The notes under the pieces are model-generated. The model worked only from the letters and a program-made list of their open reading frames with translations, searched no databases and was not told where the DNA came from. From positions 64,789-128,788 of the forward strand of contig CAVPJW010000004.1 of assembly GCA_963705525.1 (NCBI GenBank): 64,000 nucleotides of DNA, written 5' to 3'. This stretch comes from an uncultured Acidobacteriota bacterium (GTDB lineage Bacteria; Acidobacteriota; Vicinamibacteria; Vicinamibacterales; CAVPJW01). The position numbers and the translations under genes were made by a program. Of the stretch, positions 38,304 to 62,522 are shown piece after piece; within the stretch, counting starts at the first letter, position 1; each line of letters opens with the position of its first letter.

Positions 38304-38904
38304 CTGGTGCGTCATCACGATCTGCTCGGCCGCAGCGGCGATATTCGCATCGCCGAGCGCCGGCGCGCAGACGGTACGGTTCGGACTCGGTCACACGCCG
38401 ACTCGCGAAGAGGTCGTCGCGCTCGACATCGCCATCGGTCCGAATGGAAAGGAACTGCCTCCGGGCAGTGGGGATGCGTCCTCGGGCAAGGCCGTCTATG
38501 ACCGCCGCTGTGTGGTCTGTCATGGCGCGACGGCTCGCGAAGGACCGCAGGACATTCTCGTGGGTGGCCGAGGCACGCTGACCACCGCCAAGCCCGTCAA
38601 AACGATCGGCAGCTACTGGCCGTACGCGACGACGCTCTGGGACTATCTGAATCGCGCGATGCCGTTCGACCGGCCGGGCACGTTGACCTACGACGAGGTC
38701 TACGGGATTACGGCGTATCTGCTGTCTTTGAACGGCATCATCGGAGAGCACGACGTGATGAACGCGGAGACGCTGCCGCGCGTCAAGATGCCGAATCAGA
38801 GCGGCTTTGTGTCGGACCCGAGGCCGGATACGGACACGAAAGTCGAAGGGTCGAAGGGTCGAAAAGTCGCAGGGTCGAAAACGGGGAACGACAAATCACG
38901 ATGA
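38296..38904 (+). CDS. Mono-haem c-type cytochrome subunit (SoxD/SorB-like)
   Basis: ATG at 38296 overlaps the preceding gene by 8 nt. It has a signal peptide and the haem motif CVVCHG. The Lys/Gly-rich tail is encoded by an 8-bp repeat. Confidence 0.75.
   Translation: MHNWCVITICSAAAAIFASPSAGAQTVRFGLGHTPTREEVVALDIAIGPNGKELPPGSGDASSGKAVYDRRCVVCHGATAREGPQDILVGGRGTLTTAKPVKTIGSYWPYATTLWDYLNRAMPFDRPGTLTYDEVYGITAYLLSLNGIIGEHDVMNAETLPRVKMPNQSGFVSDPRPDTDTKVEGSKGRKVAGSKTGNDKSR
38842..38881. repeat. Five tandem 8-bp units GTCGAAGG/GTCGAAGG/GTCGAAAA/GTCGCAGG/GTCGAAAA
   Basis: Read directly from the sequence. It lies inside the last 21 codons of the cytochrome gene. Confidence 0.85.
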
Positions 38905-38910
38905 GGTGGG

Positions 38911-39846
38911 ATGGTGCAGACGCTTCTGATCGCAGCGGTCGTGCTCGGCGCAGGTTCGACGATTTCTCATTCGCGGCAAACCGCCATGTCACGACCTGAG
39001 GCGCATTCATTGTTCGGCCGGCCGTTGTACGCGCCGACGTTATCGCCGGAGCAGAAGACCAAGCTCGAGCAGGACCTTGCGCAGGCGCAGGCTGATCTGA
39101 ACAAGGCGCCATCAGACCCGGCGCGCATCGTCTGGGTGGGCCGCCGCCTCGGCTATCTCGGCCGCTATCGCGACGCGATCACGACCTATACGAAGGGCAT
39201 CGAGGCGCATCCGAATGATGCGGCGTTGTACAGGCATCGCGGGCATCGCTACATTTCGATTCGGGAATTCGACAAGGCGATTGCCGACTTCGAACGCGCC
39301 GTGACGCTCGTGAAAGGCCATCCCGACGAGGTCGAAGCCGATGGTGCACCGAACAAGTTCAACAAGCCACGGAGCACACTCCAGTCGAACATCTGGTACC
39401 ACCTTGGCCTCGCGTACTACCTCGAGGGCGATTTCGAGCGCGCGCTGACCGCCTACGTGGAGTGCATGAAGGTGTCGACGGTGAATGACGACATGCTCGT
39501 GGCGACGAGCGACTGGCTCTACATGACTTACCGGCGACTCGGCCGCGAAGCCGAGGCGCGAAAAGTGCTCGAGCCGATCACCGAAAAGATGGACATCCTG
39601 GAGAACGACACGTACCACAGGCGACTGCTGATGTACAAAGGGCTCGTCCCGCCCGACGCGCTGCTCAAGACGGAAGGGGCAAGCGACCTCGACATCGCCA
39701 CTCAGGGTTACGGCGTCGGCAATTGGTACCTGTATAACGGGCAGAAGGACAAGGCGAAGGCCATTTTCGAACGCGTCCTGAAGGGGTCTTCCTGGTCCGC
39801 GTTTGGCTATATCGCGTCAGAAGCCGACCTCAAACGAGGACTGTAG
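38911..39846 (+). CDS. TPR-repeat protein with N-terminal signal/anchor
   Basis: GAGGTGGG lies before the ATG. TPR-like helices are present (AITTYTKGIEAHPNDAALYRHRGHRYISIREFDKAIADFERAV). Confidence 0.6.
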   Translation: MVQTLLIAAVVLGAGSTISHSRQTAMSRPEAHSLFGRPLYAPTLSPEQKTKLEQDLAQAQADLNKAPSDPARIVWVGRRLGYLGRYRDAITTYTKGIEAHPNDAALYRHRGHRYISIREFDKAIADFERAVTLVKGHPDEVEADGAPNKFNKPRSTLQSNIWYHLGLAYYLEGDFERALTAYVECMKVSTVNDDMLVATSDWLYMTYRRLGREAEARKVLEPITEKMDILENDTYHRRLLMYKGLVPPDALLKTEGASDLDIATQGYGVGNWYLYNGQKDKAKAIFERVLKGSSWSAFGYIASEADLKRGL

Positions 39847-49954: not shown

Positions 49955-50100
49955 CGAATTTCTGGCACGCGGCCTGGAAAAGCGCGAAGCGTGCTGCCCT
50001 GTAGCCCGAAGCCTGTAGCCAGACGCCTGCAAGGATCAGTGAGTGCCTTTCAAGCCGCCCTTCTGATACAGTTGATGGCTGTTGTCCGTCAGGAGGAGCA

Positions 50101-51123
50101 TTGGAAGGACTCATTCGAGCCTGGGGGAAGATTCTCGCCGGCCAAGCCCCCTCGCTCTCGCTCGAAATCACGCGTGAGTGTCCACTTACCTGCCCGGGCT
50201 GTTATGCATACGGCAGCGATCATCTGGGCGGCGGAGTCACGCTGCGGCAGGTCCGCGATCTGAAGGGCCAGGCGCTTGTCGACGGCGTGATGAATGTGAT
50301 CGCCCGCCACAAGCCGATGCATCTCTCGATCGTCGGCGGCGAGCCCCTTGTCCGCTATCGCGAGCTGAACGACATTCTGCCCATGCTCGCCGACAAGGGT
50401 ATTTACACGCAGCTCGTCACCAGCGCCGTTCGTCCCATTCCCGTGGAATGGGCATCGCTCAGACGACTCCAGTTAGTCGTGTCAATCGACGGGCTGCAGC
50501 CGGAGCACGACGAGCGGCGGAAGCCGGCGACCTACGAGCGTATTCTCAAACACATCGAGGGCCATCACATCACGGTCCACTGCACCGTCACGCGGCAGCA
50601 GGTGAACCGGGACGGGTACCTCGAGGAGTTCACCGACTACTGGTCCCGGAACACGAATGTGGACCAGATCTGGTTCAGCCTGTACACGCCACAGGTCGGT
50701 GAGATCTCCACCGAGCGGCTGCGCGCCGCCGACAGGAAGCGCGTGGCGGACGAGCTACTGATCCTCCGCGTGAGGTATCCGAAACTCGTCATGCCCGTGG
50801 GCCTGATCAACGCGCTCGTCGATCCACCGCGCACGCCCGAAGACTGCATATTCGCAAAGACGACGACCTGCGTGTCAGCGGATTTCGAGACACCGATCAC
50901 ACCCTGCCAGTTCGGTGGGAATCCGGATTGCGCGAATTGCGGATGCATTGCATCAGCGGGGCTTGCCGCGGTCGGTCGTCACCGGCTGCCGGGTGGCCTG
51001 CGAGTCGGCGCGATCTTCGAGGCGTCATTCCGCGTGGGCGCGACGGTGAATCGACTGCGAGGCGGACTTCCCCGGGTTCCGTCTCAGCCGGCGTCGAGCG
51101 ACGTCCCGCCAACCGTCGCCTGA
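50101..51123 (+). CDS. Radical SAM protein with a Cys-rich C-terminal auxiliary region (HpnH-like layout)
   Basis: TTG start after AGGAGGAG. The cluster motif is ITRECPLTCPGCYAYG. Also present are IVGGEPL and C-terminal PCQFGGNPDCANCGC. Confidence 0.8.
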   Translation: MEGLIRAWGKILAGQAPSLSLEITRECPLTCPGCYAYGSDHLGGGVTLRQVRDLKGQALVDGVMNVIARHKPMHLSIVGGEPLVRYRELNDILPMLADKGIYTQLVTSAVRPIPVEWASLRRLQLVVSIDGLQPEHDERRKPATYERILKHIEGHHITVHCTVTRQQVNRDGYLEEFTDYWSRNTNVDQIWFSLYTPQVGEISTERLRAADRKRVADELLILRVRYPKLVMPVGLINALVDPPRTPEDCIFAKTTTCVSADFETPITPCQFGGNPDCANCGCIASAGLAAVGRHRLPGGLRVGAIFEASFRVGATVNRLRGGLPRVPSQPASSDVPPTVA

Positions 51124-55480: not shown

Positions 55481-58400
55481 TCAATAGAAATCGTGTGAGT
55501 CTACCGCGATTGGCGGCAGGCCGTCGAGCCTCTGCACCCGCTCGGCTCGGACCGACGTCGCGCCTTCTTCGCTCTGCAGCATCCCTTCCACGAGCAGAAA
55601 CGGCTGCTCGATGATCGTCAGCCGCTCGCGCGCGTAGAGGTCCGGGCGGACGATGATGTTGGCAATCCCGGTTTCATCTTCGAGTGTTAGAAAGACGAAG
55701 CCCTTGGCGGTGCCTGGCCGCTGGCGCGTAATCACCGTCCCTGCCACCCGCACACGCCGGCCACGCTGCGCGCGCGGCAGGTCGGCCGCGCGCAGCACGC
55801 CGCGGAGTGCCAGATCGGATCGTCGGAGCGCCATGGGATGCGGGCCGATCGTGAGACCTGTGCCGGCATAGTCGGCCTGGATGCGCTCGGTGAGGGACAT
55901 AGGGGTGAGAGGACTCTCTGAAGTTCTCAGTTCTTTGTGCTTAGTGCTTAGTGCCAGTTCCTGGTTCTTAGTGCTTAGTTCGTGCCGAGTGCTCAGTTCG
56001 TTCTTAGTGCCTGGCTCCGGCTGTGTCTCGTCGAAGAGCTCGCCCGCCGGACGGACCGCTCTCTCCACCTGCCAGAGCGCATCTCGGCGATGAGCGCCGA
56101 AGGCCTGAAGCGCGCCGATCTCGGCCAGGGTCTGCAGTTCTTCCCGCCGCAGGCGGGTGCGGGCCACAAGATCGTCCGCCGACGAGAACCGCCGGCGCAT
56201 CACCACGTCACGCCAGTCGTGCGCGCAATTGTTGCAGAAGCAGGTACACGCGACGGGACCGGCTCGTTCGACCGGATGCGCGGCGTCTCGATAACTGACT
56301 TCGAGCATCGAACGATCATCGCAGCCGCACTTCGGACACCGTTCCGGACCAGGGAGCGCACCGCTGGCCGGAAGTGCCGTGGCAATGGCGCGGCCGCACT
56401 CTTCGCGAAGTCCGTTGACGTACCGGAGCCCAAGGCGGACCGTGCCATCCGGCTCGATCGTACATAGCCAGTCGGAGCGCTCCACGTCGATCGACGCGAA
56501 CCGCACGCCCCGTCGTTGGGCATCCTTGACGAGCGTCGCGGGATGATAAAACCCCATCGGCTGGTTGTTGAGCAGGGCCGCATAGAACGCGGCCGGATAA
56601 TGCGCCTTCAGATACGCACTGGCGTACGCCAGCAGCGCAAAGCTGGCGGCGTGCGACTCGGGGAACCCATACAAGGCGAACGAGGTAATCGACCGGACGA
56701 TCTGCTCCGCCGCCTCGTCCGTGATTCCTTTCCGGGCCATTCCTTCTCGAAGCTGCACCTCGATCTGCTTCATCCGTTTTTCCGACCGTTTGAAGCCAAA
56801 GGCTCGACGCAACTCTTCCGCCTGCCCGCCGGTAAATCCCGCCACGACCATCGCAATCCGGAGCAGCTGCTCCTGAAAAAGCGGCACGCCCAGCGTGCGC
56901 GCGAGGATGGGTTCGAGACAAGGATGCGGATACGTGACCACCTCGCGGCCGGCGCGCCGATTGAGATAGGGATGCACCATCTGACCGACGATGGGCCCCG
57001 GGCGGATGATCGCCACTTCGACGACGAGATCGTAGAAGCGCTCGGGGCGCATGCGCGGCAGCGTCGCCATCTGGGCCCGCGATTCGACCTGAAAGACCCC
57101 GATGGTATCGGCCGCCTGCAGCATCCGATAGACGTCGGGATCGTCAGGAGGGAGATGCGCCAGATCCAGCGGCTGGCCCGGCAGAATTCCGTCGCCGCCG
57201 GATCCCTGACTCGAAAGAACCGGTGCGCTCCTCAGGCGTGTGCCGTTGATCAGCTCCAGCGCGTCCTGGAGCACCGCCATCATGCCGAGCCCGAGCAGAT
57301 CGACCTTGACGATGCCCATGTCGGCGCAATCGTCCTTGTCCCACTGAATGACCACGCGACCCGGCATGCTGGCGTTTTCGAGCGGGACAACGCTGTCGAG
57401 CTGTCCCTGGCTGATCACCATGCCGCCCGAATGCTGCCCGAGGTGCCTCGGCAGGTCCTGCATGCGCTGCCACAGATCGGCAAACAGCCGAATCGTCGGA
57501 TCCTTCGGCGACAGGCCGACCTCGTCCAGATGGCGCGTGAGCGTGTCGCCAGGATCCACGAATTCGAAATGATTCATGACCTTGGCGAGTCGATCGATCT
57601 CGGTCGTGTCGAGCCCGAGCACCTTCCCCACTTCGCGCGCGGCGCTCCGGCCCCGGTAGGTAATGACGTTCGCCGTCATCGCCGCACCCAGACGGCCATA
57701 CTTTTCGTACACGTGCTGAATGACACGCTCCCGTCGATCTCCGCTGGGCAGATCGAGATCGATATCGGGCCACTCGCCGCGTTCTTCCGACAGGAACCTC
57801 TCGAAGAGGAGATCCATGCCGACGGGATCGACGGCCGTAATCCCCAGGCTGTAACACACGGCGCTGTTCGCGGCCGACCCTCGCCCCTGCACGAGGATGT
57901 CCTGCTGACGGCAGAAATTGACGATGTCCCAGACGATCAGGAAATAGCCGGCGAGATCGAGCTTGTCGATCAGATCCAGCTCGCGGGCGATCTGCCGGCG
58001 CGCGCGATCGTGATAGGGACGATATCGTTCGCGTGCGCCGACTTCGGCGATCTTGCGGAGAAAGGACATCTTCGTCTCGCCGGGCGGCACGGGATAATCC
58101 GGAAACCGGTAGCCGAGATCGGCCATGCTGTAGGAAAGCCGATCGGCCAGCTCGCGCGTCGCCTGCACGGCGCGTGGCAGGTCGTCGAAGAGCGCGGCCA
58201 TCGCCTCCGGAGACTTCAGATATCGTTCGGCATTCGGCGCCAGCCGGCGCCCGGCGGCATCGAGCGTGGTCTTGTGGTGGATGCAGGTCAGCACGTCGAA
58301 GAGCGGACGCTCGTCCGGGCTGGCGAAACGCACACCATTGGTCGCCAGGATCGGCACCCGGAAGGCCTCCGCCAGATCGATGAGCGTCTGGTTGTCTTCC

Positions 58401-58933
58401 TCCTGATCTCGCAGCATGTGACGCGCGAGCTCGACATACACGCCACTCCGCCCGAACGTCCCGACGAGCCGATCGAGCAGACCTCCAACCCCGTAACGCC
58501 CGGCTGAGAGCAGTTCGCGCCCGGCCAGTGCGACAAGGCCGCGCGTCGAGCCATCGATGTCTTCGAGCCGCAAGACTCCCGCGCCTTTGGGGGCCTCGAT
58601 TTTCATGCGCGTGATCAGGCGACAGAGATTGCGGTAGCCTTCCTGCGATTCGACGAGGAGGGGGAGAAGCCAAGTGGGCGTGGGAGTTCTTAGTTCTTGG
58701 TGCTTAGTTCTTAGTGCGGGCGCCGCGATCGAGAGCTCGGCGCCGATGATCGGCTTGATCCCGGCATGTGTGGCGGCGCGATGAAATCGTGGCGCGCCGT
58801 ATACGCCGTCCCGATCGAGCAACGCCAGCGCCGGATAGCCCAGATTGGCGGCGTGATCGACCAGCGACTCAGGAAGCGATGCGCCCTGGAGGAAACTAAA
58901 GGCCGACGCGGTGTGGAGTTCGAGGTAGGGCAC
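55481..58933 (-). CDS. dnaE2: Error-prone DNA polymerase III alpha-type subunit DnaE2 (ImuC)
   Basis: 1150 aa, GTG start. The PHP N-terminus is LELHTASAFSFLQGAS. The polymerase core carries IGVFQVESRAQM and LYGFPESHAASFALLAYASAYLK. A C-terminal OB-fold region is present. It lies directly downstream of imuA-imuB. Confidence 0.92.
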   Translation of the reverse strand: MPYLELHTASAFSFLQGASLPESLVDHAANLGYPALALLDRDGVYGAPRFHRAATHAGIKPIIGAELSIAAPALRTKHQELRTPTPTWLLPLLVESQEGYRNLCRLITRMKIEAPKGAGVLRLEDIDGSTRGLVALAGRELLSAGRYGVGGLLDRLVGTFGRSGVYVELARHMLRDQEEDNQTLIDLAEAFRVPILATNGVRFASPDERPLFDVLTCIHHKTTLDAAGRRLAPNAERYLKSPEAMAALFDDLPRAVQATRELADRLSYSMADLGYRFPDYPVPPGETKMSFLRKIAEVGARERYRPYHDRARRQIARELDLIDKLDLAGYFLIVWDIVNFCRQQDILVQGRGSAANSAVCYSLGITAVDPVGMDLLFERFLSEERGEWPDIDLDLPSGDRRERVIQHVYEKYGRLGAAMTANVITYRGRSAAREVGKVLGLDTTEIDRLAKVMNHFEFVDPGDTLTRHLDEVGLSPKDPTIRLFADLWQRMQDLPRHLGQHSGGMVISQGQLDSVVPLENASMPGRVVIQWDKDDCADMGIVKVDLLGLGMMAVLQDALELINGTRLRSAPVLSSQGSGGDGILPGQPLDLAHLPPDDPDVYRMLQAADTIGVFQVESRAQMATLPRMRPERFYDLVVEVAIIRPGPIVGQMVHPYLNRRAGREVVTYPHPCLEPILARTLGVPLFQEQLLRIAMVVAGFTGGQAEELRRAFGFKRSEKRMKQIEVQLREGMARKGITDEAAEQIVRSITSFALYGFPESHAASFALLAYASAYLKAHYPAAFYAALLNNQPMGFYHPATLVKDAQRRGVRFASIDVERSDWLCTIEPDGTVRLGLRYVNGLREECGRAIATALPASGALPGPERCPKCGCDDRSMLEVSYRDAAHPVERAGPVACTCFCNNCAHDWRDVVMRRRFSSADDLVARTRLRREELQTLAEIGALQAFGAHRRDALWQVERAVRPAGELFDETQPEPGTKNELSTRHELSTKNQELALSTKHKELRTSESPLTPMSLTERIQADYAGTGLTIGPHPMALRRSDLALRGVLRAADLPRAQRGRRVRVAGTVITRQRPGTAKGFVFLTLEDETGIANIIVRPDLYARERLTIIEQPFLLVEGMLQSEEGATSVRAERVQRLDGLPPIAVDSHDFY
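55922..56012. repeat. Degenerate tandem array of about 13 units of a 7-bp motif (plus-strand AGTTCTT/AGTGCTT), in-frame within dnaE2
   Basis: Plus strand: AGTTCTC AGTTCTT TGTGCTT AGTGCTT AGTGCC AGTTCCT GGTTCTT AGTGCTT AGTTCGT GCCG AGTGCTC AGTTCGT TCTT AGTGCCT. It encodes TKNELSTRHELSTKNQELALSTKHKELRT. Confidence 0.9.
58685..58719. repeat. Five-unit array of the same 7-bp motif, in-frame within the dnaE2 N-terminal region
   Basis: Plus strand: AGTTCTT AGTTCTT GGTGCTT AGTTCTT AGTGCGG. It encodes ALRTKHQELRT. Confidence 0.9.
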
Positions 58934-58937
58934 GAGG

Positions 58938-59025
58938 AGTTCTTGGTTCTGGGTTCTTAGTTCTTTGTTCTACTAAGCACGAAGCACCAAGAACTAAGAC
59001 TACTGGTTCTTAGTTCTTAGTGCCC
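58938..59025. repeat. Intergenic array of the same 7-bp motif filling the imuB-dnaE2 spacer: 5 forward, 4 inverted and 3 forward units
   Basis: AGTTCTT GGTTCTG GGTTCTT AGTTCTT TGTTCTA c TAAGCAC GAAGCAC CAAGAAC TAAGACT act GGTTCTT AGTTCTT AGTGCCC. The 11-nt segment aagaactaaga (58989-58999) is complementary to both 58955-58965 and 59008-59018. Confidence 0.9.
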
Positions 59026-59028
59026 TCG

Positions 59029-60393
59029 TCAATCGATCGTGCCCTCGATGGCCCAGCGGTTCAGTTCGCGATCGCGGGACACGCGATAGACCCCGCCATC
59101 GCTGAGCTCCACATCCCATTCGTCGTGATCCCACGATCGCACCGGCGTCCGTGGCCGCCACCACGCTCCTGACGTGCGCCAGGGCCCGATCGCACAGGCC
59201 ACCATCCCGCCGCTCATGCCACGGCGGTCGGTGGCGATCCGCACCGGCCGATCCTGGGACACGCTGACTCTGGCCGGGATGGGCAACCGGAACCGGCGGA
59301 CGATCAGCGGGCGCGTCGAGCGGGCCGACTCGAGAAGCACACGCGCGGGCGGCATCCTGGTGTCAGGCTTCCGATCGACGGCGTCCAGGAAATTCACCAT
59401 GTCGAAGGCCCCGGGTCGATGGGAATCCACGAGCCGGGGTGCGCCCACGCGCGACTCCCCCATCAATGCCGTGAGCCGTGCCAGGAGCGTTGCCAGGGCT
59501 TCTGCTGATGGACGCGCCCGTGTGAGGAGCGACCATTGCCACACGCGGGCAGGCGTGGGATCGATGGCGATCTGGACGCGATCGATTCCGGCCGGCGGAG
59601 GATGCGACTCGAGATCGAGCAGCGCCAACGTGCGAAGGACGCGCGGATCCCGAAGGGGCGTAGGAAGCTCGAGACGCCGGACGTGCTCGGCGCGCGTGAC
59701 CAGGCGCAGCGCGACGTGGAGCGTCGCCGCTCCGCGATCGCGTCGTTCGAGACGATCGCAGACCGCGTCGAACAGTCGTCCCAGCACGAACGACAATGGC
59801 TCGAGGCCTTCGATGGGCCATTCCAGATCGAGAGCCGCTTCGAACCGTTCTTCGGGCACCGACGCGACGAGTGGTCGACCGTCTTCCCCTCGGGCCAGAC
59901 GCTGCCAAACGAGCCCGGTTTGTCCCAGTCGCTCCGACAACCCGGACGCGGGCAATCGGGCGAGATCGCCGCACGCCTTGAGTCCCCAGCGCCGCAGGGT
60001 CGTCAGCGTGTCGTGCCCGACTTCCGGGGCATCGGGGCGCGTGCTGATCAGCACAAACACACGTTCGAGCACCTGTAGTGGAATACGCGCCAGCGCCGCG
60101 GCGTCCTCTCCATCGGGCACGATCGTCACGCCTCGTCTGCCGTGCGCCAGCAGCATGGCCGTCGCACGACCACCGGCGATCGCCACGTCCAGATCGATCC
60201 CGCGTGCGATCGACTCGCGTCGAATGGCCTCGCCGATCGCGGCAGGGGTTCCAAACATCCGCCGGAGGCCGCTCACGTCGAGCGTGACGACATCAGGCGC
60301 ATGGACCTCGATGCGCGGCGAAAAATCGCGCGCGACGCCCGGCAGCGCCTCAGGTGCGACCGATGATGCCGGGGAACGGAGACAGGCGAACAT
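59029..60393 (-). CDS. imuB: ImuB, Y-family-polymerase-like mutasome subunit
   Basis: MFACLRSP...FSPRIEVHAPDVVTLDVSGLRRMFG is a typical ImuB N-terminus. The ATG at 60393 lies 1 nt after the imuA stop. The ORF opens at 60411. Confidence 0.85.
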   Translation of the reverse strand: MFACLRSPASSVAPEALPGVARDFSPRIEVHAPDVVTLDVSGLRRMFGTPAAIGEAIRRESIARGIDLDVAIAGGRATAMLLAHGRRGVTIVPDGEDAAALARIPLQVLERVFVLISTRPDAPEVGHDTLTTLRRWGLKACGDLARLPASGLSERLGQTGLVWQRLARGEDGRPLVASVPEERFEAALDLEWPIEGLEPLSFVLGRLFDAVCDRLERRDRGAATLHVALRLVTRAEHVRRLELPTPLRDPRVLRTLALLDLESHPPPAGIDRVQIAIDPTPARVWQWSLLTRARPSAEALATLLARLTALMGESRVGAPRLVDSHRPGAFDMVNFLDAVDRKPDTRMPPARVLLESARSTRPLIVRRFRLPIPARVSVSQDRPVRIATDRRGMSGGMVACAIGPWRTSGAWWRPRTPVRSWDHDEWDVELSDGGVYRVSRDRELNRWAIEGTID

Positions 60394-60394
60394 C

Positions 60395-61105
60395 CTAGAG
60401 CCCGCGTGCATGCACCACGCGCGGCTCGATCGCGGGTGGAGAAAAGATGCGCGGTCGGAGAACGACCTGGGGGCGTGCCGTTTGCGACAGCGCGACGGTC
60501 AAGCCGCCGGCGCTCCGTGCCGTGGGTTCCACTCCCATCAACAGGCACACCGTTTCGGTGCCTTCGATCACGCGCTGGAGCCGCATCCACGTGGTGAACG
60601 GCACGCGCTTGATGACCTGCGCCGGCAGATCGACGAGATCCAGCGCCACGAGTCCGAAATGTCCCGTCTGCAGCACGAGATTGAGCGCCTTGAGCGCGCG
60701 GTCGAGAGCCGTGTGGAAGCCGCCCCATTCCTGCGCCAGGCTCGCCCGCGCCGACGACATCGCCTGCCCGCGAATCCAGAGCAGGTGCGCCAGATCGATC
60801 CCCGCCGCAGCCGCCGATTCCGGGTCGAGACTGTCAACCGTATCGACGATCGCCACGAGTTCACCGCGATCGATGGCAGCGGCAGACGATGACAGGAGAA
60901 GGCTGGTGCGGCCCGATGATCGCGGGCCGACGAGATCGGAAATCTGTCCACGCGGCCAGCCGCCTTTCAGCTGAAGGTCGAGTTCGGAAAGGCCCGTTGA
61001 GGCGCTGGGCCAGTCGTCGTGCGCGACTTTTCGAGTGGTCAGCGTGTGATCGAGCTTTCGATCACCCAGTAACGTTTCGAGGTGGGCCCGAGTCGTCTGT
61101 GTCAT
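60395..61105 (-). CDS. imuA: ImuA, RecA/SulA-like mutasome subunit
   Basis: I chose the internal ATG at 61105 (236 aa). It carries a degenerate P-loop GQISDLVGPRSSGRTSLLLS. It is the first gene of the imuA-imuB-dnaE2 arrangement. Confidence 0.75.
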   Translation of the reverse strand: MTQTTRAHLETLLGDRKLDHTLTTRKVAHDDWPSASTGLSELDLQLKGGWPRGQISDLVGPRSSGRTSLLLSSSAAAIDRGELVAIVDTVDSLDPESAAAAGIDLAHLLWIRGQAMSSARASLAQEWGGFHTALDRALKALNLVLQTGHFGLVALDLVDLPAQVIKRVPFTTWMRLQRVIEGTETVCLLMGVEPTARSAGGLTVALSQTARPQVVLRPRIFSPPAIEPRVVHARGL

Positions 61106-61122
61106 CGCGACTTTCGCTTTTT

Positions 61123-61138
61123 GTTCGCTGCCGCGAAC
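61123..61138. promoter_or_regulatory. Palindrome GTTCGCTGCCGCGAAC overlapping the -10 element and downstream region (candidate repressor/SOS operator)
   Basis: A perfect GTTC-N8-GAAC inverted repeat read from the sequence. A second element, GAAC-N8-GAAC, is at 61170-61185, just upstream of the -35. Confidence 0.3.
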
Positions 61139-61165
61139 TATAGCGCAGGGCTGGATCCGGATCAA
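61137..61165 (-). promoter_or_regulatory. Candidate sigma70 promoter of imuA-imuB-dnaE2
   Basis: In gene orientation: TTGATC, a 17-nt spacer, then TATAGT. The -10 element ends about 31 nt upstream of the imuA ATG. Confidence 0.5.
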
Positions 61166-61253
61166 GCGCGAACTTGTGGAAGAACGTCCGTGAGCGGCGT
61201 GTTTAAGGGGGAAGTAACTGACACGTGATAAGATACGGCTCTCCCCTCCTCGC

Positions 61254-62522
61254 TTGGCCGAATCCCTAACCGCTGACGCCCCGGCGGACGAGCCCGCCAG
61301 TTCCAGCCAGCGCGTGTTTCGCCGGCTGGCCGCCGCCCTGAGGTATCGCGATTTCCGGGTCCTCTGGTTCGGGGCCTTCACCTCCAGCGTGGGCACCTGG
61401 ATGCAGAGCGTGGCCGAAAACTGGCTGGTGCTCACGGTGACGGGCTCGGCGTTCTTCCTGGGCCTCGACGCCTTCCTGCAGCAACTTCCCATCATGCTTT
61501 TCACGCTGATCGGCGGCGTCGTCGCCGACCGGCGGGATCGGCGTCGCACGCTGCTGACGTCCCAATACATCCAGATGGCCAGCGCCTTCACGCTCGCGGC
61601 GCTCGTGTACTTCCAGGTGGTTCACATCTGGCACATTCTGGCGCTGTCGTTCACCACGGGTTGTGCGCAGGCGTTCGGCGGACCCGCTTATCAATCGCTC
61701 GTCCCCTCGCTCGTCGAAAAACGCGACCTGCCCAATGCGATCGCGCTCAACTCCATCCAGTTCAACCTGGCGCGCGTCGTCGGACCGCTGCTTGCCGGCG
61801 CGGCGCTGGCCGCCTTCGGGATGGTGTCGTGCTTCGGCCTGAACGGCCTGTCCTTTCTGGTCGTCATCGTCGCGCTGATGTCGCTGCACGTGAAACATGT
61901 CGCGCCCCTGTCGACGCAGAGCATGCTCACCGAGCTCCGCGGAGGCTTTTCGTACGTGCGCGGGGAAGGCAGCATCATGGCGTTGACGGTGCTCGCGGCG
62001 GCCACGACATTTCTGGGATTTCCGCTGCTGACGTTTCTGCCGCTCTTCGCGCAGCGCGTGTTCCACGAAGGGGTCGGCCAGTACAGCCGCCTCATGGCGT
62101 TTTCCGGTGCGGGCGCCGTGTGCGGGGCACTGCTCGTCGCGTGGCTCGGCCGATTCAAGCGAATGGGACTGGCGGCGCTCCTGGTGCAGCTGCTCTTCGG
62201 GGCGCTCGTGATCGGATTCTCGCTGTCACGCGTGCTGTGGCTCAGCTACCTGCTGCTGTTCCTGTGCGGTGGAGCGCTGGTGATCGTGTTTTCACTCATC
62301 ACGTCGCTGGTGCAGCTGATGGCTCCCAATGAAATGCGGGGGCGCGTGATGAGCATCTACATGGTCGCGTTCCGGGGCGGGATGCCGCTCGGCAGCCTGG
62401 CGAGCGGATATTTTGCGAGCCTTACGTCGGCGCCGCTGGTTCTGACCGTGAACGGGGCGTTGCTGATGGTCGTGGCCACCTACTTCGTCATTCGCAACCA
62501 TGGCATCAAGGAGTGCGAGTAG
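61254..62522 (+). CDS. MFS transporter (EntS-like MFS_3 type)
   Basis: 422 aa, about 12 TM helices, with FRVLWFGAFTSSVGTWMQSVAENWLVL and GGVVADRRDRRR. Confidence 0.85.
   Translation: MAESLTADAPADEPASSSQRVFRRLAAALRYRDFRVLWFGAFTSSVGTWMQSVAENWLVLTVTGSAFFLGLDAFLQQLPIMLFTLIGGVVADRRDRRRTLLTSQYIQMASAFTLAALVYFQVVHIWHILALSFTTGCAQAFGGPAYQSLVPSLVEKRDLPNAIALNSIQFNLARVVGPLLAGAALAAFGMVSCFGLNGLSFLVVIVALMSLHVKHVAPLSTQSMLTELRGGFSYVRGEGSIMALTVLAAATTFLGFPLLTFLPLFAQRVFHEGVGQYSRLMAFSGAGAVCGALLVAWLGRFKRMGLAALLVQLLFGALVIGFSLSRVLWLSYLLLFLCGGALVIVFSLITSLVQLMAPNEMRGRVMSIYMVAFRGGMPLGSLASGYFASLTSAPLVLTVNGALLMVVATYFVIRNHGIKECE

Follow-up and report, generated by a model that had tools for sequence, protein, structure and literature searches.

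Heptameric simple sequence repeats are in excess in large GC-rich genomes (Mrazek 2007, as cited in PMC4692102), and the STRR heptamers of cyanobacteria are dispersed tandem repeats of this kind on the account that the same paper gives of Mazel 1990. The TAACTGA repeats, which occur in marine Beggiatoaceae, cyanobacteria and Bacteroidetes, form 169 sets, mostly in forward orientation and a few nucleotides (nt) from start codons, with a Shine-Dalgarno (SD) sequence in about 10%, and their unit gives stop codons in all frames (MacGregor 2015, PMC4679880). Heptamer repeats of Nostoc PCC 7120 lie upstream of recF and recO, where their deletion altered reporter output, and a translational role has been suggested for genes with a distant or non-canonical SD (bioRxiv 10.1101/2022.06.06.494920). 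The G-rich heptamer repeats GGGAATC of Xanthomonas and GGGGAYT of Nostoc are transcribed and form G-quadruplexes (Rehm 2015, PMC4692102). The spacer between imuB and dnaE2 of an uncultured soil bacterium of the Acidobacteriota, contained in a window of 64,000 nt of contig CAVPJW010000004.1, is built from heptamers as well. It is well supported that this spacer belongs to a dispersed family of repeats without genes of their own, about 200 arrays of which are present in 5.6 Mb, and that the copy has come to lie at an operon junction.

The imuA, imuB and dnaE2 genes are all on the minus strand of the window, and the imuB–dnaE2 gap spans positions 58934-59028. In mRNA sense, the spacer reads CGAGGGCAC TAAGAAC TAAGAAC CAGTAGTC TTAGTTC TTGGTGC TTCGTGC TTAG TAGAAC AAAGAAC TAAGAAC CCAGAAC CAAGAAC TCCTC and consists of 12 heptamer units in three arms; in the 5' to 3' direction, arm a has three units in sense orientation, arm b four in antisense and arm c five in sense. 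Tandem Repeats Finder (TRF) assigns period 7 to 58938-58971 and 59006-59021, and AAGAACTAAGAAC with up to two mismatches has 17 matches in the window compared with 0.2 expected, a number that 0 shuffles reached. The 11-nt core of arm b at 58989-58999, AAGAACTAAGA, has an exact reverse complement on either side, at 58955-58965 and at 59008-59018. Upstream of the dnaE2 GTG, the sequence AAGAACUCCUC has no SD motif, and the 3' end of the 16S rRNA of this genome is the canonical CACCUCCUU. Since CUCCUC before the GTG resembles the anti-SD itself, pairing with the 16S 3' end is impossible. There is no alternative in-frame dnaE2 start between the GTG and a TAG 13 codons upstream. An earlier note, made from the sequence of the window alone, had described the 95-nt gap with 5, 4 and 3 units, the perfect pairing of the core with either neighbour over 11 bp and the lack of an SD before the GTG, and all three descriptions agree with these results.

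The genome (5.6 Mb in 7 contigs, 63.7% G+C, 98% complete) contains 653 matches to the double unit in 204 clusters, 131 of which hold at least three overlapping 13-mer matches, and exact AAGMACYAAGMAC words number 368. The earlier note had considered control of dnaE2 by the element and had stated that hundreds of arrays scattered across the genome would make it a generic REP/MITE-like element; the genome-wide motif search found just such a scatter, and a device specific to dnaE2 is not supported. The family consists of tandem arrays of AAGAACY, with AAGCACY variants, which stand singly or as two opposed arrays that can form a hairpin. Sixty of the 204 clusters are inverted pairs with a median arm of 29 nt and loops of 2-48 nt, and 54 of them are ordered AGTTCTT arm, loop, AAGAACT arm, with the AAGAAC strand outward on both sides. 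The + - + arrangement of the dnaE2 spacer is unique among the 60 inverted elements. The unit number per arm is variable. The terminal sequence of the elements is G[T/A]AGTTCTT; of 98 ends, 66 have G at -3 and about 28 have GTAG (xGTAGTTCTT). Long open frames contain only seven of the 131 multi-unit arrays, two of them in dnaE2, and the other 124 are outside such frames; by crude gene calls, 4 of the 131 are genic. Period 7 accounts for 32 arrays of the source genome, compared with 0-15 at periods 4-13 (22 at the double period 14), and further heptamer families (AAGCCTG, AATGAGC and others) are present at lower copy number. The AAGMACY double unit, which occurs 368 times in the source genome, has 0 copies in two genomes of the same family, and six genomes scattered over the order have 10-55 each. 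Five genomes of other families in the order (G081, G118, G046, G010 and G147) carry it 19-55 times, and in G147 at least 10 units stand in one run; the spread of the unit is patchy and not in line with phylogeny.

The spacer array fits the dispersed heptanucleotide tandem repeats of the STRR/TAACTGA/GGGAATC type in all six respects that were compared: 7-nt units arranged head to tail, some 100 sets or more, a preference for non-coding positions, an orientation bias, SD-poor downstream genes and an excess of period 7. The family resembles the TAACTGA repeats in having a 7-nt unit with one G, about 170-200 dispersed sets per genome that are mostly intergenic and lie in forward orientation a few nt from starts, few downstream genes with an SD, a patchy phylogenetic spread and a mechanism of mobility that is not known. 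In both, each of the three frames through the unit has a stop codon, which makes copies within genes rare and degenerate. The two differ, however, in unit and phylum; about 30% of the present arrays are hairpin-forming inverted pairs, whereas BOGUAY has one, and the present family has a second positional class, antisense arrays right after stops, and units that vary among the genomes of one order. STRR and the Nostoc repeats share with it the genome-wide dispersal of tandem heptamers near start codons or promoters, DNA-repair genes included, but cyanobacterial units are different, effects at the promoter level have also been reported for them, and an operon-internal layout with three arms has not been described. 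GGGAATC and GGGGAYT repeats likewise show a period-7 excess, an intergenic position favouring co-oriented gene pairs and strand specificity within 50 nt of starts or stops. The structure of AAGAACY elements, in contrast, comes from opposed arrays, and with one G per unit no G-quadruplex is possible.

Other classes of small repeats agree less well with the spacer. REP, BIME and REPIN sequences are also dispersed, extragenic and hairpin-forming, and they are often inverted doublets that lie within transcribed spacers or at 3' ends; GTAG, which REP units carry at the 5' end, is read at about 28 of 98 AAGAACY termini. The AAGAACY arms, however, are tandem heptamers of variable number and not a fixed palindrome of 20-40 nt, and a RAYT gene is absent: the Y1 transposase family PF01797 has no match in the 98%-complete genome, while control genomes do match, so that an element mobilised by a REP/RAYT system is rejected. 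Transposable elements of the miniature inverted-repeat type (MITEs), Correia elements and Rickettsia palindromic elements are small gene-less inverted repeats, some copies of which are translated in frame, as in dnaE2. The AAGAACY elements differ from these in lacking a target-site duplication, a fixed length and an evident related transposase. At the element flanks, the shared word measures 2.71 nt compared with 2.76 +/- 0.12 nt in shuffled-pair controls, which shows no target-site duplication and leads to rejection of a MITE. Rfam 15 has no family for the spacer, the sole match being a chance miRNA hairpin at 20 bits against a threshold of 88.

The arrays obey a rule that ties strand to position: sense (AAGAAC) arrays end 4-32 nt before start codons, and antisense (AGTTCTT) arrays follow stop codons. 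Between co-directional genes, the distance from the array end to the next start is at most 32 nt for 25 of 32 sense arrays, compared with 5 of 21 antisense arrays (Fisher p = 1.6e-4); for 17 of the latter 21, the array begins at -8 to +18 nt relative to the preceding stop. Convergent gene pairs have more than their share of inverted elements between them (26/55, in spacers holding 15% of the intergenic bases), and divergent pairs have less (4/55, compared with 28%). Twenty-four inverted elements, including the dnaE2 spacer, lie in co-directional pairs; 21 of them are antisense-then-sense, and the median distances are 8 nt from stop to element and 28 nt from element end to start. The dnaE2 spacer conforms to the rule, as its arm c ends 4 nt before the GTG. 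A sense array is present within 60 nt upstream of the start in 57 genes, dnaE2 among them. These array-led genes have an SD-like tetramer in 9 of 57 cases (16%) compared with 30% genome-wide, and their leaders from -25 to +5 are predicted to be more open (unpaired probability 0.56 compared with 0.40, p = 2e-17). The strand rule extends beyond AAGAACY to unrelated units in other genomes. In relatives with other units, arrays that closely precede starts are G-poor on the sense strand, 19 of 25 having less G than C, whereas arrays just after stops are G-rich, with less G than C in only 10 of 48. In agreement with this, 50 of 71 loci have less G in the last 35 spacer nt than in the first 35.

All RNA structures considered here are predictions. 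The RNA of 58925-59035 has a minimum free energy (MFE) of -36.6 kcal/mol (z = -4.3), and in the MFE structure the dominant hairpin pairs 59023-59008 with 58999-58984 and leaves 59007-59000 as the loop. Two alternative hairpins exist because one unit sits in + - + order. The earlier note had presented them as two alternative stems, and their mutual exclusivity stands, but they are not equivalent, the ensemble in a 211-nt context containing 17.3 expected base pairs (bp) for a-b and 3.1 for b-c. In this ensemble, arm c is 76% unpaired, and the stretch from -20 to -1 before the GTG is 81% unpaired. The MFE structure also closes an outer stem of 6 bp whose 5' strand is the last base of the imuB stop codon plus CGAGG. 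This stem is weakly supported, since 7% of mismatched-locus controls are as good as its duplex of -11.8 kcal/mol, and a long-range stem between the imuB stop and the dnaE2 start is unproven as a conserved coupling device (p ~0.07 in the source genome). Over 71 loci, windows of the stop and start regions pair with -7.26 kcal/mol compared with -5.99 +/- 0.29 kcal/mol in mismatched pairs, and greater complementarity is expected here because the arms extend to the edges of the spacer.

The DnaE2 homologues place the genome in the Vicinamibacterales of the Acidobacteriota, and the junction was compared in loci from collections of genome and metagenome contigs. The nearest relatives have best DnaE2 identities of 77% (genome contigs) and 72% (metagenome contigs), genomes of the same family share about 69% DNA identity, and neither collection contains an orthologue of the exact spacer. 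Among the 66 genome-contig loci with both genes, the spacer is 7 nt or shorter in 17 and at least 40 nt in 39; among the 69 such metagenome loci, it is 9 nt or shorter in 13 and at least 45 nt in 42. The two genes overlap or abut in outgroups and some relatives, and most relatives have spacers of 45-700 nt. Since the genome loci with short spacers include Bryobacterales, Solibacteraceae and Methylomirabilota, stop/start coupling is taken as ancestral. It is well supported that the AAGAACY copy sits exactly between an unchanged imuB end and an unchanged dnaE2 start, where it replaces the overlap or abutment of the outgroups and some relatives.

The imuB–dnaE2 spacer is hypervariable. Of 35 genome-locus spacers of 40-400 nt, 21 fold at z < -3 and 11 have a clear 7-nt periodicity, others having period 8 or 9. 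Many of the longer spacers of relatives are inverted arrays of a genome-specific unit of 7-9 nt, such as TGCCATC, GCTGTCA, CTGCCTA, CTCAAAA or AATTCTT. The spacers of L049 and L130, with flanks 97.5% identical, differ by indels of 13 nt and 21 nt. Between L131 and L141, the entire G-rich arm and the loop differ, and the unit has changed in concert (CTGCCCG compared with CTGCCCA). In the close relatives L141 and L004, the start-proximal G-poor arm alone is kept.

These observations lead to a plausible hypothesis, to which a probability of about 0.55 is assigned, that the spacer as a whole is a family copy that provides an open, SD-less leader for dnaE2. According to the folding models, arms a and b of the polycistronic mRNA would fold, 5 nt past the imuB stop, into a stable hairpin of 16 bp that would hold the antisense arm b, so that arm c would stay a G-poor, A-rich and unstructured leader of 35 nt before the SD-less GTG. 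Initiation of dnaE2 would then occur de novo on the open leader, not through an SD or through termination-reinitiation coupling. The same arrangement of the leader is seen at 56 other genes of the genome, and the proposal is the one made for the TAACTGA repeats (PMC4679880) and agrees with what has been discussed for the Nostoc repeats upstream of recF and recO (bioRxiv 10.1101/2022.06.06.494920). The hairpin may also serve, in the manner of REP sequences, as a barrier to 3' exonucleases for the imuAB message. Its sequence appears to carry no information specific to dnaE2. An influence on dnaE2 translation, as the earlier note proposed, is still plausible, but a device made for dnaE2 is not supported, there being 204 arrays genome-wide.

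Several points weigh against the open-leader hypothesis. The genome-wide statistics use the author's own crude gene calls (4670 genes, 89% coding). When more of the surrounding sequence is folded, pairing of the GTG itself with codons downstream of it is predicted, and the probability that -4 to +6 is unpaired is just 0.2-0.3. In 49 canonical elements, the arms of one element are about as complementary to each other as to the arms of other elements (-1.072 and -1.060 kcal/mol per nt; 168 of 500 permutations do as well), and there is therefore no covariation evidence for the hairpin; a stem kept by compensatory change is rejected. The G-poor rule has exceptions such as L110 and L051, with no more spacers conforming than the 50 of 71. 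L059 and L164 have flanks 94% identical and spacers that are unrelated, and L110 has a 148-nt inverted array where L106 and L161, at 86-87% identity, have 9-11 nt. Such fast turnover fits selfish or neutral DNA as well as function.

The spacer may accordingly be viewed as neutral or selfish filler at the sole non-coding position of the operon, with no useful effect, the strand rule reflecting those insertions that do least harm. The rapid turnover between close relatives, which extends to full replacement and empty sites, is consistent with such filler, as are the lack of arm-specific compensation, the genome-specific unit with its patchy spread across the order and the many relatives that manage with spacers of 0-30 nt. 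However, the dependence of orientation on position is strong (p = 1.6e-4) and recurs with unrelated units in other genomes, and the junction is occupied in most of the Vicinamibacterales sampled. Array leaders are also, by prediction, significantly less structured, and they are poorer in SD sequences, which suggests that a purifying filter, if nothing more, acts on the RNA. Neutral filler is considered rather unlikely.

An unlikely reading, which is compatible with the open-leader hypothesis, is that the element is a REP-like stabiliser through which imuAB and dnaE2 levels would come to differ, the hairpin blocking 3' exonucleases or stalling the terminating ribosome. With arm c blocked, the hairpin is predicted to be stable, at -29.5 kcal/mol, and no more than 8 nt separate its start from the stop; the enrichment of inverted elements between convergent genes, with their depletion between divergent ones, points in the same direction. 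Work by Newbury in 1987 is said to have found that repetitive extragenic palindromic (REP) elements stabilise upstream mRNA, and Liang, Rudd and Deutscher in 2015 reportedly found that REPs within 15 nt of the stop lower translation of the upstream gene. This reading, however, does not explain the orientation rule of one-directional arrays upstream of starts, and the hairpin lacks a U-tract, being followed by GUGCUUAGUAGAAC... No terminator-like site was detected in 58700-61900 and no promoter-like site in the spacer, so that an intrinsic terminator or internal promoter in the spacer is rejected.

The three-arm layout has led to the possibility, judged very unlikely, of a switch that senses ribosomes, a more specific form of the idea of the earlier note. 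When no ribosome stands at the imuB stop, a-b would form and the leader would be open; a terminating ribosome would cover arm a, allowing b-c to form and close the leader, and DnaE2 would thereby be set relative to ImuB. The perfect complementarity of the 11-nt core to both neighbours and the + - + layout, found in this one element of the 60, are in line with such a switch. When pairing of the 9 nt or more after the imuB stop is forbidden as a model of the terminating ribosome, the ensemble flips, the expected bp falling from 17 to 1-7.5 for a-b and rising from about 4 to 14-16 for b-c, and the modelled openness of the leader drops from 0.87-0.91 to 0.38-0.50. This is thermodynamic modelling only, however; termination is brief, and a-b would re-form afterwards, and any + - + arrangement of one unit would behave in this way automatically. 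The junctions of relatives show many different architectures, and neither collection contains a relative closer than about 77% DnaE2 identity. A broader proposal, also distinctly unlikely, is that G-poor heptamer arrays such as AAGAACY are a modular and copyable leader for SD-independent initiation across the Vicinamibacterales and that Beggiatoaceae and cyanobacteria, by analogy, use them likewise; in the dnaE2 spacer, arm b would be captured by arm a as a decoy, which would keep the leader open, and the terminating imuB ribosome would displace arm a and close the leader, making a switch that sets the DnaE2:ImuB ratio of the mutasome.

The weakest reading, that the spacer is an operator array for LexA or another DNA-binding regulator because GTTC recurs every 7 nt, as the earlier note had suggested, has hardly any chance of being correct: GTTC/GAAC half-sites do resemble known LexA half-sites and the cassette is typically an SOS cassette, but the approximately 200 arrays adjoin unrelated genes, mostly after stops or before starts in transcribed spacers and 3' ends, the GTTC-N7-GTTC box reported for Acidobacterium as a LexA box is absent from the imuAB–dnaE2 locus (3 in the window compared with 2.1 expected by chance, none near the locus), which rejects it as the identity of the spacer, the region upstream of lexA has neither heptamer arrays nor a palindrome of the imuA type, and the likely control region of the cassette lies upstream of imuA.

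Upstream of imuA, whose product is RecA-like, a sigma-70-like site (TTGATC-17-TATAGT) is present at 61165-61137 on the minus strand. A perfect 16-bp palindrome, GTTCGCGGCAGCGAAC, at 61138-61123 overlaps the last two bases of the predicted -10 hexamer, and this palindrome would be a better operator candidate for the cassette, for SOS or other control, than the spacer. A genome search for palindromes of this type found one other exact GTTCG..CGAAC site only and no clear regulon. The probable imuA start is the ATG at 61105 (236 aa) and not the GTG at 61591. Whichever reading of the spacer holds, neither a dnaE2-specific regulator nor an SOS box should be seen in it. The positions of the features discussed are collected in Table 1.

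Table 1. Coordinates in the window of the features of the imuB–dnaE2 junction and of the arrays inside dnaE2
Feature	Position	Strand	Remarks
imuB	59029-60411	-	Matches to Y-family (IMS) weak
imuB stop codon TGA	59029..59031	-	ImuB end at the same residue in all relatives
Outer stem, 5' strand ACGAGG	59024..59029	-	Predicted pairing with 58932-58937 (CCUCGU), including first two GTG bases; MFE structure
Arm a, three sense units GGGCACT AAGAACT AAGAACC	59005..59025	-	5' strand of dominant predicted hairpin
Arm b, four antisense units GTAGTCTT AGTTCTT GGTGCTT CGTGCTT	58975..59003	-	Pairing possible with either neighbouring arm
Arm c, five sense units TAGAACA AAGAACT AAGAACC CAGAACC AAGAACT	58938..58972	-	A-rich, G-poor; predicted largely unpaired
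CCTC and GTG start of dnaE2	58931..58937	-	No SD; homologues (MxY[IV]EL) agree on start position
dnaE2	55481-58933	-	Domains PHP, Pol III alpha, finger, HHH, OB
In-frame array 1 in dnaE2, same unit, ALRTKHQELRTP	58686..58712	-	~aa 73-85; in lineage-wide hot spot
In-frame array 2 in dnaE2, same unit, GTKNELSTRHELSTKNQELALSTKHKELRT	55923..56012	-	~aa 975-1004; in lineage-wide hot spot

The spacer had been suggested to be the source copy of the arrays inside dnaE2. In-gene array 1, however, is closer to other genomic copies (97% over 38 nt) than to the spacer (93% over 28 nt), and the suggestion is not supported. DnaE2 of the lineage has four array hot spots, at aa ~70-90, 560-600, 850-900 and 960-1010, two of which hold the in-frame arrays of the source genome. 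Period-7 arrays dominate the loci of relatives, with counts of 115 compared with 0-12 and of 138 compared with 0-20 at other periods. The in-frame DnaE2 arrays of relatives (L001-L080 and L094-L173) use genome-specific period-7 units, and the imuA-imuB region upstream is also rich in arrays; array density is about 1 per 3-4 kb in dnaE2 compared with 1 per 8-31 kb downstream. The DnaE2 frame changes across hot spots in 11 of 81 genome loci (L038, L043, L044, L046, L047, L049, L052, L054, L056, L060 and L062) compared with 0 of 80 short-read metagenome contigs. Nearly all of these loci come from long-read metagenome-assembled genomes (MAGs), L044 being from a short-read MAG. Phase variation by frameshifts in the in-gene arrays was considered, and since the frame changes are nearly confined to long-read MAGs, they are probably sequencing errors. 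At ~56200-56400 (DnaE2 aa ~845-905), a Cys-rich insert (CPKCGCDD...CTCFCNNCAHDW), which is zinc-ribbon-like, interrupts the HHH_6 domain and adjoins an array hot spot.

The statement that the 64 kb hold no other array is true of the AAGAACY unit outside dnaE2, but not of other families, arrays of which occur at 38842-38879 and 49998-50029. The former repeats an 8-nt unit in tandem (GTCGAAGG x 4.8) and precedes an ATG at 38911 by about 30 nt; here too, a short-period array, of a different unit, stands before a start codon. The latter belongs to the second heptamer family of the genome (CCTGTAG/CCCGAAG, of the AAGCCTG type, with about 50 arrays genome-wide by TRF) and lies in the spacer before a gene starting at 50101.

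Dispersed heptamer repeats have long been noticed in large GC-rich bacterial genomes and yet have stayed unexplained, and the imuB–dnaE2 junction offers a compact and well-defined test case. Here, a repeat element has taken the place of the ancestral stop/start coupling at an operon junction, and its sense arm is the predicted SD-less and unstructured leader of the SOS mutagenesis polymerase. If the leader function proves false, the locus would show how selfish hairpin repeats settle, with fast turnover, in the few permissive positions of an operon. If it is true, the repeats would be a portable SD-free translation start, and annotation pipelines should not doubt starts of this kind.

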